Source: a bacterium (GTDB lineage: Bacteria > UBA8248). Taken from it: a DNA stretch of 64,000 nt. The stretch lies in NCBI GenBank assembly GCA_965219955.1, contig OZ244799.1:2240001-2304000 (forward strand), given 5' to 3'. Within the stretch, counting starts at the first letter, position 1. The number at the start of each line of letters is the position of its first letter. The notes under the pieces are model-generated. The model did not search any database. It was not told where the DNA came from and saw only the letters and a program-made list of their open reading frames with translations. Of the stretch, positions 36,322 to 44,675 are shown piece after piece. The position numbers were made by a program, and so were the translations under genes.

Positions 36322-36416
36322 GGGATTGTTGAAAAAGCCCCCCTGACAAGGGGGGGGTAAGAGCGATGCCCTCCACGAGGTTTTTTTCACCGGCCTCATG
36401 TAGGGGCGGTTCGCGA
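36322..36416. repeat. TIR left end plus truncated GTAG REP
   Basis: GGGATTGTTGAAAAAGCCCCCCTGACAAGGGGGGG matches the 27772 element; half REP GTAGGGGCGGTTCGCGA at 36400-36416. Confidence 0.6.
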
Positions 36417-36432
36417 TAGCTGAACGAGAAGC

Positions 36433-37473
36433 TCAGGCGGAAGTCTGTTCGTCACCACCCGGCTTTCGGGCGAGCATGAAATACAGAGTCGTCGAGATGC
36501 CCTTCCTTCCCCCCTCGACAGTGGCATCGGCGCCGACGTTGAAGATATCGCTCACGCGGCGACTGCCCCGGGCGGAGAGGCGGAGGAACTCCAGGATGCC
36601 GAGCACCTGGTTCGTCACACGACGTCCGAGCGGGGAACGCGCCATCGCTCGAATCGAGAACCCTTTTGATTCGAGCGGTGAGTACCAGGGCGTTTCCGGG
36701 TCCCCCTCCAGCGCGCGGTCGTTCGTCTCCAGGAGTTCGAAGCCGGCTGCCACCATGCTCGCGCAGCACTCTTCCGCCGTGATCAGATCTGGAATACCGT
36801 AGCCGAGCTGGATGCCGTGCTTGATTCGCCGATGTTCTTCGTTACCGGGATCGTAGCGATCGGTCATCACGCATTCATCGGCCACCAAAAGACCGCCGGG
36901 CTTCAGGACCCGAAACAACTCCGTGAAGACACGCGTCCGGTCGGGAGCATGGCAGGTCGACCCGATAGCGTAGATCCGATCATAGGTGGCATCGCCTGCC
37001 GGCAGGTCCATGAAGTCGGCCACCATCACCTCGCACTGCTTCGAGAGACCCGCTGCCTCGTTGTAACGCCGGGCCTTTTCGACCTGTTCGGGGACGACGT
37101 TGGCCCCGACGATCCGCGCTCCGGAGTAGCGCGCGATTTCGCGCATGGGCCCCCCGACCCCGCAACCGACATCGAAGACCAGCATCCCCGGCTTCAGCCC
37201 CAAGCGGTCGGAGACGTACCGTTCGTGCCGCCGGATCGCGTCGGCGAACGCCTCGCCCTTCTCGAAGGGACACATGTGGTGCGACCGTCCCCAGGCGATC
37301 TCGTACAGGCCGGCGCCCAGGGCATAGTGGCACCTGGCCAGAGTAACGTAGTTCTGCTTTCGGGCGGACACGGCCTCATCGTCGTTCTTCATGAAGAGGT
37401 CGATGTACAATTCGATCTTTTCGGATTTACTGACGTTGTCCGGCAGGTGTGACGATCGCGTCATGGCATTCAT
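36433..37473 (-). CDS. Sterol C24-methyltransferase-like SAM methyltransferase, divergent copy
   Basis: YEIAWGRSHH, DVGCGVGGPMREIA, YAIGSTCHAP, MTDRYDP..EEHRRIK..IQLGYGIP, PWY.PL, LYFMLARKP; start probably ATG 37473. Confidence 0.85.
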   Translation of the reverse strand: MNAMTRSSHLPDNVSKSEKIELYIDLFMKNDDEAVSARKQNYVTLARCHYALGAGLYEIAWGRSHHMCPFEKGEAFADAIRRHERYVSDRLGLKPGMLVFDVGCGVGGPMREIARYSGARIVGANVVPEQVEKARRYNEAAGLSKQCEVMVADFMDLPAGDATYDRIYAIGSTCHAPDRTRVFTELFRVLKPGGLLVADECVMTDRYDPGNEEHRRIKHGIQLGYGIPDLITAEECCASMVAAGFELLETNDRALEGDPETPWYSPLESKGFSIRAMARSPLGRRVTNQVLGILEFLRLSARGSRRVSDIFNVGADATVEGGRKGISTTLYFMLARKPGGDEQTSA

Positions 37474-37803
37474 TACACTCGATAGAATATGCCTGTTTAC
37501 TGTGTTTGGTGAGGTCTTGAACTTCGGGAGCGACCCGATTATCGGGTCAACCCGCAGACTATGTCGCAACGAATATGTTGGCTGTGACAATGAAATTTGT
37601 CAAGGAAAATGGATTCCGTCGAACCCTCCCGCCTTGGTCGGCTCCGACACCGGAATGACGGCGGGGCAGTTCGTCTCAACCGATGAGGAAGGGTTTGCTG
37701 CAAACGAGGAAAACATCGGCGCGCAAGCGCGCCTACTCGGGATGAGGAAGGTATTACGGGCATGGGCGGCGAATGCGCCACAGGCCATACCCCCTTGAGG
37801 ACA

Positions 37804-40023: not shown

Positions 40024-40242
40024 TCACTCCTTCTTTCGGGGGCCTCGCTCGCGCGGGTCGCGCTCGGTGCGCATTCCATGAATTGCGCCCGATCCGGCGC
40101 TGCCTTTGTTCGCTGCGGCAGCTTCGGCTGTTTCTTTCGCCCGCCTGCGCGCGCGTTTGGCCGCACGGCGCATCGCGATCTCTGCACCAGCAAAATCAGG
40201 GTCTCGGGGCTTTTGCGTCGAATTCCGCTTCCTTGATTTCAT
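40024..40242 (-). CDS. Small protein coupled to the zeta-toxin-like ATPase (putative antitoxin/partner)
   Basis: ATGA overlap with upstream stop; DPDFAGAEIAMRRAAKRAR helix. Confidence 0.6.
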   Translation of the reverse strand: MKSRKRNSTQKPRDPDFAGAEIAMRRAAKRARRRAKETAEAAAANKGSAGSGAIHGMRTERDPRERGPRKKE

Positions 40243-40769
40243 CCCCTCTCCTCTTCCTTCAACAACTCCGGTTCAACACCTGCATTATCATACAAAGCCC
40301 ACCCGTCGACCAAGCCCCGATAGATTCGCTCGAAGTTGCGCCGGCCGGCGTCGAATCGCCTGCGAATCACTTCCTCGGGCACGTCGTGGCCTCCTTCGAG
40401 AACGCGCTGCGCGACGCGCGTGATCGCCACCTCGGGCGTCGGCAGTTGCAGGAAGAACAGCTTCACCCGGTAGTTCTGCTCCCGCCAGCGTGGAATATGG
40501 CGCGCATAATTCCGCCCGCTCAACGTCGTCTCGAAGGCGAAACTTTCTCCCCTAAGAACGTGTTCACAGATTTGCTCCAACATCCGCCTGCCGGACTGAA
40601 AACCGACCAGATGAGGATCGGAAGGGTCCAAGCCCGCCGCGATGTCGTCGGCGTTGATGAAAAGCGGGCAGTCCGCCTCGTTCGGCAGAAATTCCGTGGC
40701 GAACGTCGTCTTGCCCGCGCCGTTCGGCCCGGCGATGATGAATATCCGCTTCTCGCTCGCATCGGCCAA
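40239..40769 (-). CDS. Zeta-toxin-like P-loop ATPase/kinase (COG4185 type)
   Basis: IIAGPNGAGKTT, FINAD, FAFETTLSG, RVAQRV..GGHDVP, YDN; start uncertain. Confidence 0.85.
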   Translation of the reverse strand: MADASEKRIFIIAGPNGAGKTTFATEFLPNEADCPLFINADDIAAGLDPSDPHLVGFQSGRRMLEQICEHVLRGESFAFETTLSGRNYARHIPRWREQNYRVKLFFLQLPTPEVAITRVAQRVLEGGHDVPEEVIRRRFDAGRRNFERIYRGLVDGWALYDNAGVEPELLKEEERG

Positions 40770-40973
40770 TGCCGGCCTGCTCCTTTGCAAGTATCTCCAT
40801 ACTCCGCGTCAATTTCCTAAACTCATTGTCCCCGCGCCCCGCCCTGCACGCAAGGCCGGGCCGAAGCGCACCGCATCGCCCTGTGATATAAACAAGTTCC
40901 TGTGACGCGGATATTTCCATTGGAACGCGAGGGATTCCTAGGCTGTCCCCGATAAGACACGAACGAGGCGACG

Positions 40974-41543: not shown

Positions 41544-42011
41544 GGGGTTGTTGAAAAAGTCCCTTATGCGTCTCCCAGCAACCGCCAACTCCTCATTCCT
41601 CACCCTGAGTAGCCGCCGAAGAGCCTGTCCTGAGCTTGTCGAAGGGCGGCGTATCGAAGGGCGAGGGAAGTCGAATGCCTCGCGCCGGGCGAGAACAAAC
41701 GCTCATTCATCAATCGCGTTTGACCTTCGATATGCGGCTCCGCCGCTACTCAGGATGAGGAAGATGGGGGCGGAGCCTGTCCCGAGCGAAGTCGAGGGGC
41801 CGCTACTCAGGATGAGGCGGTGTGGTTTTGGTTCGTCATTCCGGCGAAAGCCGGAATCCATTTGCGGATGCGGGTGAGTACACAGCGGTGTTTCATTCCC
41901 CCCGATGCGCGGGAACCCTGACGAAAGGCAAAAGGCGTAAAAATGGATTCCGGCTTCCGCCGGAATGACGGCGGTGGTCAATTCCGAGCGATGAGGATTT
42001 TCAGCAGCCCC
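41544..42011. mobile_element. TIR-bounded element with nested REP pairs
   Basis: Left GGGGTTGTTGAAAAAGTCC; degenerate right ATTTTCAGCAGCCCC; CCTGAGTAGC/GCTACTCAGG pair; GTCATTCCGGCGAAAGCCGGAATCCA pair at 41835-41969. Confidence 0.7.
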
Positions 42012-42048: not shown

Positions 42049-43050
42049 TTATCCCGGTTTGCGCGCCTTGTGGTAGTACATCGGCGTAAATATCCCCAGA
42101 CGCCCCGCCGCCACGAGGCTGTCGGCCGCAATGTTCAAAACTTCCTGTACCGCAAGCGACCCGGTGGGCACCGCGCGCACGCCTTCGAGGACGCGCAGCG
42201 CCGCCGTGGTGATTTTCCGGCCAAGCCGCGTTCTCGGCAGACCCCTCAGCGTCAGGCCGCCCCCCTCCAGCGACCGGTACCACGGCGTCCGCGGGTCGGC
42301 GTCCGGGGCGCGGTCGCGCGCCTCGATGTGTTCGAAACCAGCCGCCCGCAAGCCCTCGTTGACGTCTGAGAAGGAGGCGATTCCCGGCAGCGCATTGCCG
42401 AATTCGATACGCTGCATGACTTCTCGATGCGCCGGGTTTTCGCCGTCATACGCAGGAGTCACGCACCAGTCGTAGCCCGCGAAGACAGCCCCCGGCCGCA
42501 ATACCCGGAATATCTCGGCATAGGCGTCCGTCTTGTCCGGCGCATGAGCCAGGGCCTCGACATGGTAGGCCGCGTCGAAGCTCCCCTCTTCCGCCGGAAT
42601 GTTCATGAAATCGCCGTGCAAAACGCTGCACAGATTCTCCAGGCCGGCTTCTTTGTTGTACGCGGCGCACTTCTCGACCTGGTACGCGCTGATGTTGAGG
42701 CCGACGATCGACGCGCCGAACTTCCTGGCGAGCGAGCGTTGGGGGCCGCCTACGCCGCAGCCGACGTCCAGCACCTTCATGCCCGGCCCCAGGCCGATTC
42801 CCTCGCCCAGAAAATACTGATGCGCGGCGAGGGCTTCCTCGAAGGACGCGCCGCGCACCCCGGGCGCGAAGTGAAACGACTGGCCCCATCCGTACTCGTA
42901 AAAGTCGGTGATCAGATCGTAGAACGTATTGATCATGGCGGCGTATTCTTCCTTGCCGCGCTCCTGGCTGCTGCGGAACTTCGAGAGCGTTTCGGCCATC
43001 TCCTCCGGCGGAATCGCCCTGGAAATGGGATTATGAAAGTCAGCCGCCAT
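42049..43050 (-). CDS. Sterol C24-methyltransferase (ERG6/SMT family)
   Basis: Canonical SMT regions: FYDLITDFYEYGWGQSFHFA, VLDVGCGVGGP, YHVEALAHAP, YDW, IEFGNALP, GIFTPMYYHKARKP; ATG 43050 overlaps the Rieske stop. Confidence 0.9.
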   Translation of the reverse strand: MAADFHNPISRAIPPEEMAETLSKFRSSQERGKEEYAAMINTFYDLITDFYEYGWGQSFHFAPGVRGASFEEALAAHQYFLGEGIGLGPGMKVLDVGCGVGGPQRSLARKFGASIVGLNISAYQVEKCAAYNKEAGLENLCSVLHGDFMNIPAEEGSFDAAYHVEALAHAPDKTDAYAEIFRVLRPGAVFAGYDWCVTPAYDGENPAHREVMQRIEFGNALPGIASFSDVNEGLRAAGFEHIEARDRAPDADPRTPWYRSLEGGGLTLRGLPRTRLGRKITTAALRVLEGVRAVPTGSLAVQEVLNIAADSLVAAGRLGIFTPMYYHKARKPG

Positions 43051-44095
43051 TGCCGGTCTCCCTGTCCGGGTCATCCGCGGGGCCTTCAGGGTAGAACTGC
43101 CGGTACCACTCGCGCATCCTGCCCAGGGGGCCCTCGCCCGCAACCCCCGAAGGGCGTTGCCGGTAAATTTTATTTTTCCAGATATCCACGTCCTGCCGCC
43201 ATTGCGAGATCCAGTTCCCGACCACGTAGGAAATCAGAATCCGCGGAATTTTCCGGGCGGCGAACCACCGGAAGGATACCCGTTGCCTGAGCGCCTCGAG
43301 GGGGGTGTGCGTCTGGAACATCGTGATTTCGCCGATTTTCGGTATTTCGAATTCGAACTTCACGATACTGCCGGGACCGAGAAAGGTGATCAGCGCCCGC
43401 GCTCTCGTCTTCTCGTACACCCGGCCCCTTATCTCGAGCGCCGGGTCGTCCTGGAAATAGGCGACGTGCTCAAGCGTGTCATCGAGAAACCACGAAGGCT
43501 CGTGGATAATTCTTATCCAGGGCAATTGTATGTTGGTCCAGGGGATGCGCATTGTGCCGTGGAGCTCTGAAAAATGATGAAAGTCGACGCTGTTCTCGGC
43601 GAATTCGATGATGTGCATGTCCACTTCGCCCGCGTCGTAGCGGCCGCGGTAGACGAGCTCGCGCTCGTCGATCTTCGGCTCCTGCGGCAGCCGGTACGGC
43701 GCCTGAGCACCCTGGCGCGCCGAGTGGTAAATCATCACCATGCCGTAGTAGTCGATCGCCTCCCAATGCCGGTGGACGAGAGGCCGGTCTTTGGCGTGGG
43801 GCGGGTCGCATACTCTGCCGTCGCCGTCCAGCTGCCAGCCGTGAAACGGACATTGCAGCCGGTCCCCCTTTACCTCGCCGTGGGCCAGGTTGGCGCCCAG
43901 GTGCGGGCAGAATGCGTCCACGGCCGCAATCCGGCCGCTCGTCTTGCTGCGAAAAAGGGCGATCTGCTCCCCCACGCACTGAACGTGCTTCGCTTCTCCC
44001 GCCTTGATTTCCCCCGACGCCGCCACCCTGTACCAGCCGTCCGGATAAGGCGGCGGGTAGGTGCGTTCCCGGTAGCGCGTGAGAGCATCGGACAT
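43040..44095 (-). CDS. Rieske non-heme iron oxygenase, Neverland/DAF-36 (cholesterol 7-desaturase)-like
   Basis: PPPYPDGWY, Rieske CPH...CPFH, E-x3-D-x2-H-x4-H (ENSVDFHHFSELH), QDVDIWKNKIY, GP...MREWYRQFY. Confidence 0.82.
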   Translation of the reverse strand: MSDALTRYRERTYPPPYPDGWYRVAASGEIKAGEAKHVQCVGEQIALFRSKTSGRIAAVDAFCPHLGANLAHGEVKGDRLQCPFHGWQLDGDGRVCDPPHAKDRPLVHRHWEAIDYYGMVMIYHSARQGAQAPYRLPQEPKIDERELVYRGRYDAGEVDMHIIEFAENSVDFHHFSELHGTMRIPWTNIQLPWIRIIHEPSWFLDDTLEHVAYFQDDPALEIRGRVYEKTRARALITFLGPGSIVKFEFEIPKIGEITMFQTHTPLEALRQRVSFRWFAARKIPRILISYVVGNWISQWRQDVDIWKNKIYRQRPSGVAGEGPLGRMREWYRQFYPEGPADDPDRETGNGG

Positions 44096-44288: not shown

Positions 44289-44675
44289 GGGGGTGTTGAG
44301 AAAGTCCCTCGAAGAGGAAGTGACGCCTGCGCCTCCGCCCGGTTTCGGGTTTTGGCCGTCATTCCGGCGAAAGCCGGAATCCATTTTCGCCTTTGCCTTT
44401 TCGCCTCTTCGCCCGGACGTTTTTACGCCTGGGCGGGGAGGATCGGAATCGAACACAAAAGCAAAAGGCGAATTCTCTGGATTCTGCATCCGGACGCCGC
44501 GCAACAACAAGGTCGTGGCCACCCCGCCCGGTAAAAAGTCAAAATGGATTCCGGCTTTCGCCGGAATGACGGCTTCGTGGTGAACCGCATCAGCAGTCTC
44601 CGTAACAACGCCCGAATCCGGGCGCACACGAAACGCATCGTCAATTCCAACCGAGAAGATTTTTCAACACCCCCC
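44289..44675. mobile_element. TIR-bounded element with a perfect 26-bp REP inverted pair
   Basis: Left GGGGGTGTTGAGAAAGTCC; right GATTTTTCAACACCCCC; REP pair at 44358-44383 and 44545-44570. Confidence 0.72.

Follow-up and report, generated by a model that had tools for sequence, protein, structure and literature searches.

A conserved clade of sterol methyltransferase-family proteins from sponge-associated bacteria with an intact cofactor site and an apparently rewritten substrate side

A 64,000-nucleotide stretch of bacterial DNA (hereafter the window; NCBI GenBank assembly GCA_965219955.1, contig OZ244799.1, positions 2,240,001 to 2,304,000 of the forward strand, lineage UBA8248) encodes a member of the sterol methyltransferase (SMT) family, referred to as P0001, in which the binding site for S-adenosylmethionine (SAM) is preserved and numerous residues that are otherwise invariant in the family have been exchanged. 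Comparison with its relatives indicates that P0001 represents a conserved variant of the SMT family that has not been described before. With slightly less than even confidence, P0001 is read here as a catalytically active C-methyltransferase whose pocket has been remodelled and whose specificity has changed; its catalytic activity, a sterol as substrate and an altered regiochemistry are predictions made from the sequence. The clade is sponge-associated, conserved and apparently spreading by horizontal transfer, and it combines retained SAM machinery with the replacement of residues regarded as invariant or essential, which makes P0001 a concrete and cheaply testable candidate. If it proves active, Glu195 (numbering of the yeast enzyme ERG6) would not be universally required in the SMT family, and the sequence rules that predict SMT function from metagenomes would be refined.

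The gene lies on the reverse strand and consists of a stop-free frame of 346 amino acids (aa; Table 1). The list of open reading frames (ORFs) also permits a longer version with a TTG start that reaches position 37590. Since the alignment of the orthologues begins only at about the ATG at 37473 and a promoter-like site lies inside the extension, this ATG is taken as the start. Together with a hairpin after the stop codon, the promoter-like site leads to P0001 being read as its own transcription unit. Two Pfam domains are matched well above their cut-offs, namely Methyltransf_11 (73.7 bits, cut-off 21.2) and the C-terminal Sterol_MT_C (58.2 bits, cut-off 21.7). The CMAS profile is matched partially with 67.3 bits (residues 40–208, profile positions 4–174 of 273), compared to 55.2 bits for the canonical SMT paralogue P0002 that is encoded nearby in the window. 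In NCBIfam, which was found to hold no SMT model, every match of P0001 stays far under its cut-off, including those to the CFAS models (49–65 bits, cut-offs 400–650). An AlphaFold2 (AF2) model with a mean predicted local distance difference test score (pLDDT) of 90.6 and a predicted template modelling score (pTM) of 0.90 has the class I methyltransferase fold. According to this model, the closest solved folds are natural-product and olefin C-methyltransferases (Foldseek, E values of 1e-14 to 1e-19), i.e. AtmM, MitM, TleD, RebM, geranyl pyrophosphate (GPP) C-methyltransferase and CFAS; a search of solved structures yielded no true SMT. Contigs from RNA libraries overlap the gene (X20 over 204 nt with 3 differences, X21 over 116 nt with 11 differences) and are not counted as evidence of transcription.

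A search of 5.8 billion proteins returned about 25 orthologues of P0001 with 56–99% identity, followed by a step to at most 50% for canonical SMTs. P0002 shares 41% identity with P0001 over 301 residues in a gap-free alignment. In a phylogenetic tree of 73 rows (20 full-length diverged sequences, every second of 93 canonical hits, the paralogues from the same genome and three paralogues from the genomes G042 and G043, see below), the 20 diverged rows are separated from all others by a branch with a length of 0.66 and a support of 100 in the Shimodaira–Hasegawa-like approximate likelihood ratio test (SH-aLRT). The tree stems from an IQ-TREE quick search with SH-aLRT as the only support measure, midpoint rooting and no outgroup; plant SMT1 falls on its canonical side. 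The P0001 clade is thus monophyletic and is located inside the SMT family, not in a clade of non-sterol methyltransferases, a placement that the preliminary description of the window had named as one that would count against its proposal. That description had also pointed out an intact ORF with a SAM motif and the C-terminal SMT scaffold, in agreement with the 346-aa frame, the motif DVGCGVGGP and the Sterol_MT_C match.

The clade is under purifying selection. Pairwise ratios of non-synonymous to synonymous divergence (dN/dS, Nei–Gojobori method, NG86) between the DNA sequences of four orthologues amount to 0.169 for the pair from the window's genome (G000) and its congener G008 and to 0.24–0.29 for the other five pairs, with a synonymous divergence (dS) of up to 0.90. 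These values, which are not near 1 as expected for the decaying copy that the preliminary description had considered, are in the range of the canonical siblings (0.139 for P0002, 0.126–0.312 for a third paralogue), and the diverged copy therefore appears about equally constrained. The P0001 clade represents a conserved and selected state rather than decay.

To place the exchanges, residues of 21 clade members and 95 canonical SMTs were compared in ERG6 numbering. The numbering was transferred via motif anchors quoted in a preprint (see below), i.e. 84GWGxxFHF91, 125DxGxGxxGP133, E195, G217 and F357/P359. P0002 fits all anchors up to position 268 without insertions or deletions; between about 270 and 330, the assignment is less secure. 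In 94 alignment columns, at least 90% of the canonical SMTs share one residue. The clade retains this residue in 55 columns (at least 90% of its members) and shows clade-wide replacement in 18. The replacements are found in Regions III and IV and the C-terminal domain as well as in the vicinity of Region I and of position 249, but not a single one in the SAM-binding Region II, where D125, G127, G129, G132 and P133 are each present in 21/21 clade members and 95/95 canonical SMTs. Likewise kept in the entire clade are Y81, W85, H90, G147, D189 and H199. His90 (H66 in P0001) is the proposed deprotonating residue. The changes are not random, and residues on the substrate side have been rewritten with the fold and SAM site preserved. 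A concentration of change on the substrate side had already been noticed in the preliminary description, and all motif changes quoted there (YEIAWGRSHHM, IGSTCHAP, DEC, IQLGYG and STTLY) are present.

The exchanged positions have moreover been fixed to particular new residues. Position 195 (Gly171 in P0001) is glutamate in 94/95 canonical SMTs and in 138 of 150 family representatives, but in none of the clade members, which carry glycine (18) or aspartate (3). Tyrosine 223 (86/95 canonical) is replaced by aspartate in 18/21 and tryptophan 225 (94/95) by cysteine in 17/21 members. At position 249, tyrosine is found in 18/21 members compared to asparagine (42), aspartate (42), threonine (8), glycine (2) and serine (1) in the canonical SMTs. 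The C-terminal F357 and P359, both present in 95/95 canonical sequences, are exchanged for V8/L8/S3/F2 and T14/A6/P1, respectively. T78, another residue with 95/95 occurrence, has become alanine (14) or glycine (5), and position 87, which is Q, D, E or another residue in canonical SMTs, is arginine throughout the clade. Overall, the new residues conserved among the 21 members comprise R87 (21), C92 and S196 (20 each), F94 and V226 (19 each), G195, D223, Y249 and T348 (18 each) as well as C225 (17). A younger subclade with at least 75% identity to P0001 additionally acquired G84A (11 members), F89H, F91M and L341F (13 members each), and the A/H/M state of Region I is found only there (11–13 of 21). 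The deeper members P0017–P0022 retain the canonical Region I GWGRSFHF. When 1.84 billion representatives clustered at 50% identity were searched with a profile of the clade, the signature D223/C225/Y249 occurred in only four of the best 150 (P0021, P0123 and P0155 with G195, and P0140 with a gap at 195), which indicates a narrow subfamily. Five other family representatives (P0161, P0169, P0202, P0252 and P0270) combine Q223 with M/F225, I/L249 and a retained E195; judging by these residues, they may constitute a second specificity variant of the SMT family.

The determinants of SMT function have recently been addressed in a preprint (Brown & Welander 2025, bioRxiv 10.64898/2025.12.19.695621), which is considered here on the basis of excerpts. 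It defines 25 residues that are conserved in all functional SMTs, and deviations from this set go along with a lack of activity on desmosterol or 24-methylenecholesterol. Every SMT tested, functional or not, retains G84, W85, H90, F91, D125, G127, G129, P133, E195, G217, G333, G352 (printed as G252 in the respective sentence), P359 and W286. Earlier mutagenesis cited therein found H90, D125, G129, P133 and E195 to be essential in yeast. P0001 holds 17 of the 25 residues, with W286 placed by the PWY motif, and deviates by T78A, G84A, F89H, F91M, E195G, L341F, F357S and P359T. Four of the lost residues (G84, F91, E195 and P359) belong to those kept by every SMT tested, which places the clade outside the assayed set. 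Judged by its sequence, P0001 thus lies outside the functional C-24 SMT class as the preprint delimits it by these 25 residues. The preprint further identifies position 249 as a determinant of the number of methylations. Gly249 is necessary for C30 (isopropyl) sterols, and ten further substitutions (A, N, C, I, L, M, F, S, T and V) gave no detectable C30 products. C29 sterols were formed only with A, S, N and T, and C28 sterols alone with C, I, L, M, F and V, so that every position-249 mutant still made C28 sterols. Residues 249 and 81 lie within 5 Å of docked 24-methylenecholesterol, and a Y223F mutant of ERG6 gains a second methylation. The signature of propylating SMTs, G249 together with Phe at 81 and/or 83, is absent from P0001, which carries Y249, Y81 and I83 instead.

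In the AF2 model, residue 171 (position 195) directly follows the strand formed by residues 164–170, residues 199–201 (223–225) are located on the strand 190–203, and residue 225 (249) ends the helix 212–225. The substrate face of class I methyltransferases is formed beside the SAM methyl group by strands β-4 and β-5 at their C-terminal ends. The exchanges may be rationalized as follows. The SAM site and the proposed base His90 are intact, and the carboxylate at the end of β-4 (E195) is lost in favour of a new one on β-5 (Y223D). The aromatic wall of Y223 and W225 is removed and a new aromatic residue is gained at position 249 (N/D to Y), accompanied by conversion of the invariant C-terminal F-T-P into (V/L/S)-T-(T/A). 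These losses and gains of acidic and aromatic residues look like a coordinated relocation of pocket features. By displacing the side chain relative to SAM, the rebuilt pocket could expose another olefin carbon to methyl transfer, or favour a different sterol that is probably alkylated already. The product would then lie outside the 24-methyl, 24-ethyl and 24-isopropyl series, and the substrate, probably a host sterol, may first be modified by the two canonical paralogues.

Several points weigh against this proposal. Yeast ERG6 reportedly requires E195, and departures from the 25 residues go along with inactivity on desmosterol or 24-methylenecholesterol in the preprint, so that P0001 may be inactive. 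The proposed clustering of positions 195, 223, 225 and 249 is deduced from the class I topology combined with the docking described in the preprint, and the ERG6 numbering depends on motif anchors quoted there instead of the ERG6 sequence. The dN/dS values of 0.24–0.29 are moderate and were obtained from just four orthologue DNA sequences with dS values of up to 0.90. Lastly, the gene neighbourhood is not conserved across G000, G042 and G043, and hence no pathway partner indicates the substrate.

Among the alternatives, P0001 could be an ordinary C-24 SMT that catalyzes the first, or the first and second, methylation, with the swaps E195G/Y223D and W225C/N249Y compensating each other. The retention of Y81, E82, W85, H90, H199 and E224 as well as the canonical GWGRSFHF of the deeper clade members would agree with this, the paired loss and gain of acidic and aromatic residues on neighbouring elements fits compensation, and all 249 mutants of the preprint still delivered C28 sterols. 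Yet, eight of the 25 functional-SMT residues are changed, E195 and P359 are kept by every SMT tested, and nothing resembling P0001 is shown to work in the excerpted text. Moreover, the genome already possesses two canonical copies, and the stem branch of 0.66 indicates a burst of change, which together render this explanation unlikely. Less plausible still is the proposal of the preliminary description that P0001 performs a second or third methylation, which would give ethyl, propyl or isopropyl side chains from 24-methylene or 24-ethylidene sterols. Although the occurrence in sponge-associated bacteria, always alongside canonical SMTs and in one genome (G042) in tandem with one, would be in line with such a role, it is hard to reconcile with the tyrosine at position 249 of P0001 and 18/21 clade members, given that Gly249 is necessary for C30 sterols and ten substitutions failed. 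Tyr249 and the mutants of the preprint thus argue against later C-24/C-28 methylations. In addition, known propylating SMTs need no partner for the three steps and possess the complete set of 25 conserved residues (Brown et al. 2023, PMC10070321, in excerpts; preprint), and the signature F81 and G249 sits on the third paralogue of G000. A later methylation to propyl or isopropyl side chains is therefore considered quite improbable. That P0001 may act after P0002, as also suggested in the preliminary description, is addressed only by the co-occurrence with canonical SMTs and the tandem arrangement in one other genome (G042).

It is also conceivable, albeit doubtful, that P0001 has become a non-catalytic protein that binds sterols or SAM, or the partner of a canonical SMT in a hetero-oligomer. 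Such a function would account for the loss of Glu195, reported as essential, and of F91 and P359, from which no canonical SMT deviates, and for the constant co-occurrence with canonical SMTs. However, the conservation of the SAM-motif residues and His90 in 21/21 members would be unusual for a pseudoenzyme, and specific new residues have become fixed at the replaced positions. Similarly doubtful is an enzyme that has left sterol metabolism and methylates a non-sterol olefin such as another isoprenoid or a lipid. The lack of a cyclase in G000 and G042, a CMAS match somewhat stronger than that of P0002, and the terpenoid and lipid C-methyltransferases among the closest solved folds would be compatible with this possibility, but the Sterol_MT_C domain, the 55 of 94 retained canonical-conserved columns, the co-occurrence with canonical SMTs and the sterol-rich sponge hosts favour a sterol substrate. 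The many changed family-invariant residues might finally be taken as signs of a decaying duplicate; this is contradicted by the dN/dS values (0.17–0.29 down to 67% identity) and the tree, and with the intact frame, the conservation of the clade to 56% identity and the pLDDT of 90.6 it deserves hardly any weight.

If P0001 is indeed an active C-methyltransferase of changed specificity, a more specific role can be envisaged. Among C30 and C31 steranes, those whose side chains are unusual, such as 24-isopropylcholestane and 26-methylstigmastane, serve as the oldest chemical evidence for animals, and 26-methyl sterols are the precursors of the 26-methylstigmastane biomarker. To our knowledge, no enzyme has been reported for alkylation at side-chain carbons other than C-24 and C-28. 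Bacterial SMTs that produce 24-isopropyl sterols have been described (PMC10070321; preprint). Speculatively, and with low confidence, the P0001 clade may provide the missing enzyme for the "unconventional" alkylation of sponge sterol side chains at a terminal or neighbouring carbon instead of C-24/C-28. Bacterial symbionts would carry out this reaction, and either sterols of the host or products of the paralogues would serve as substrates. Candidate reactions are the C-26/C-27 methylation of Δ25(27) sterols like (epi)codisterol to 26-methyl sterols or a quench that forms a cyclopropane.

Comparison with characterized systems helps to frame these proposals. The bacterial C-24 SMTs from sponge symbionts and other uncultured bacteria (PMC10070321; preprint; both in excerpts) have the same Pfam architecture as P0001 at 41–50% identity. 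Both are sponge-associated, occur as several paralogues per genome and are in some cases encoded beside Rieske oxygenases. In contrast to these enzymes, P0001 has 8 of the 25 conserved residues changed, carries Tyr249 and belongs to a separate clade on a long stem. With ERG6 from Saccharomyces cerevisiae, it shares the Region II SAM motif, Y81, E82, W85, H90 and the C-terminal domain, but differs by E195 to Gly, Y223 to Asp and D249 to Tyr according to the anchor-derived numbering. That the regiochemistry can change within the SMT family is illustrated by STRM-1/4-SMT, a relative that has lost the Region I aromatics and methylates C-4 of 3-ketosteroids (PMC6997595; PMC9136925; both in excerpts). 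This likeness is one by description, as 4-SMT shows very little sequence identity with 24-SMTs and requires 3-ketosteroids, whereas the P0001 clade is 41–50% identical to canonical SMTs and retains Y81, E82, W85 and H90. Compared to STRM-1, likewise known here by description, Region I of P0001 is only partly de-aromatized (Y83I, F89H, F91M) and keeps Y81 and W85. Cyclopropane synthases, TleD and GPP C-methyltransferase share the class I fold and the predicted cationic chemistry of olefin methylation with P0001, but are only 14–26% identical and devoid of a Sterol_MT_C domain.

The genomic setting bears on the origin of the substrate. The window is part of a single contig of 4.28 Mb (G000), which is 94% complete by marker genes and carries the core genes dnaE, guaA, guaB, mutL and recD2 around the SMT region. 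In total, three SMT-family genes are present, i.e. P0001, P0002 and a third copy elsewhere on the contig (Table 1) with the published propylation signature F81 and G249. This combination is referred to as a good candidate for 24-isopropyl sterol production (Brown & Welander, bioRxiv 10.64898/2025.12.19.695621), and just two of the 95 canonical SMTs in the sample carry G249. Searches of G000 for a squalene/oxidosqualene cyclase and a squalene epoxidase with PF13243, TIGR01787 and PF08491 remained without a match, as did tblastn at E ≤1e-3 with the cyclase-bearing frames of G008 and G043. For an assembly of 94% completeness, this is strong evidence, though not proof, that the cyclase is absent. 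Hence, the substrate of P0001 is probably a host (sponge) sterol, and three SMT-family genes without a cyclase, including a third copy with the propylation signature, point to a symbiont that modifies host sterols. Open frames of about 1150 aa with a cyclase match were detected in G008 (G008:C23:4437-7991) and G043 (G043:C1:19774-21666), and are read as putative monooxygenase-cyclase fusions from an N-terminal flavin adenine dinucleotide (FAD)-type motif alone. In the congener G008, which is syntenic around the P0001 gene, the cyclase adjoins further SMTs; its presence thus varies within the genus. No cyclase was found in G042.

Next to P0002 and translationally coupled to it, a Rieske/KshA_C oxygenase is encoded. 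Its score does not warrant an assignment as the 4β-methylsterol monooxygenase SdmA (57.5 bits in NCBIfam, cut-off 600), and in a genome devoid of a cyclase it is not obvious what a C-4 demethylase would act on. The third paralogue (L204, G000:C1:515000-534999) is surrounded by genes for a second Rieske/KshA_C oxygenase, an outer-membrane β-barrel protein, a TPR protein, an MMPL transporter with a match to the sterol-sensing domain, a GPP34-P450 fusion and a LolA-like protein, and the locus looks like one for uptake and modification of sterols.

With respect to its distribution, the P0001 clade shows signs of mobility. P0001 shares 81% identity with the copy in G042, whose chromosome carries the title Candidatus Palauibacter sp., and 67% with that in the Pseudomonadales-titled chromosome G043. 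The corresponding GuaB identities are lower (59% and 57%), which argues for a spread of the clade by horizontal transfer. Within the window's own family, SMT matches (E ≤1e-40) were obtained in 11 of 42 genomes, G000 included and all from one genus, and the diverged type was present in only one of the 41 other genomes (G008). Between G000 and G008 (contig C10), window positions 36408–37615 are 98.0% identical at the nucleotide level, compared to 88.8–94.8% in the syntenic flanks, and the dS of the diverged SMT is 0.053 compared to 0.106 and 0.155 for the other two paralogues. From these sequence comparisons, a recent exchange of the diverged SMT between the two lineages is suggested. In all four genomes known beyond a fragment (G000, G008, G042 and G043), it co-occurs with canonical SMTs. 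In G042, the diverged gene (L011:9908-11023) is followed on the same strand by a canonical one (L011:10986-12062) with an overlap of 38 nt; in the tree, the latter groups with the third paralogue of G000. By a crude calling of ORFs, the loci of G000, G042 and G043 have no common gene beyond the SMT, and a conserved neighbourhood was thus rejected as a clue to the pathway. Pfam matches of the neighbours include an amidohydrolase, an AbiE toxin-antitoxin pair, a short-chain dehydrogenase/reductase (SDR) and a P450; apart from the tandem canonical SMT of G042, no partner recurs.

Sampled words of the P0001 gene were detected in runs labelled as sponge metagenomes from three studies as well as in marine- and coral-labelled runs, and two sponge studies (X5, X12) provided long, nearly identical contigs of the gene. 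A scan of metagenome contigs returned canonical SMTs with at most 49% identity and no clade member among the best 80 loci listed. A literature search found nothing that joins sterol methyltransferase, Gemmatimonad and sponge.

Table 1. Features of the diverged SMT gene and related genes. Positions refer to the window unless another contig is given; residue positions follow the anchor-derived ERG6 numbering unless stated otherwise.
Feature	Position	Strand	Details
Coding sequence of the diverged SMT-family methyltransferase P0001	36433..37473	-	Open frame, stop codon included; Pfam; full-length orthologues with 56–99% identity
Promoter-like site, sigma-70-like, GCGACA-18-GATAAT	37538..37567	-	About 65 nt upstream of ATG; consensus scan only, 9/12 matches
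Terminator-like GC-rich hairpin, then T-rich CTTTTTC	36338..36355	-	About 78 nt past stop; consensus scan only
Region I, YEIAWGRSHHM (81–91)	37273..37305	-	Y83I, G84A, F89H, F91M; Y81, E82, W85, G86, H90 kept
Region II, SAM-binding DVGCGVGGP (+MREIA)	37147..37173	-	P0001 residues 101–109, unchanged; D125, G127, G129, G132, P133
Region III, YAIGSTCHAP	36943..36972	-	E195G, A196S; residue comparison
Region IV / strand β-5, GGLLVADEC	36871..36897	-	Y223D, W225C, C226V just beyond; AF2 strand 190–203
IQLGYG	36796..36813	-	Tyr at 249; residue comparison
C-terminal motif GISTTLY	36481..36501	-	F357S, P359T; residue comparison
Canonical SMT paralogue P0002, 333 aa	42049..43050	-	Comparison sequence; 24 placeable conserved residues and Trp286 (by motif) present; N at 249
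Rieske/KshA_C oxygenase	43040..44095	-	Pfam; stop overlaps P0002 start by 11 nt
Third SMT paralogue	G000:C1:524815-525726 (= L002:1387-2418)	+	F81 and G249; other conserved residues intact

Several further features of these loci are of a possibly mobile nature. An ORF resembling a zeta-toxin/AAA protein is located between the two SMT genes of the window (40239–40790, reverse strand), and an AbiEi/AbiEii toxin-antitoxin pair (L011:12783-14518) follows the tandem SMT genes of G042. Such toxin ORFs near SMT genes hint at a mobile or accessory region. The Rieske-SMT gene pair of the window is flanked by palindromic elements (41834–41972 and 44355–44573, also 46834) that resemble repetitive extragenic palindromic sequences or miniature inverted-repeat transposable elements (REP/MITE). 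They consist of inverted arms of 30–40 nt that are 77–139 nt apart, and the arm is present 262 times in the genome at up to 4 substitutions. In contigs of sponge and coral metagenomes, these stretches reach word depths in the thousands. The elements explain the spurious "IPAKAGIH / MDSGFRRND" ORFs. Another repeated element of 1.4–2.2 kb (G008:C23:1-2185), probably an insertion sequence, has at least six copies with 88–92% identity in G000 (positions 1898337, 2787279, 3701613, 2776470, 1867262 and 2601986).

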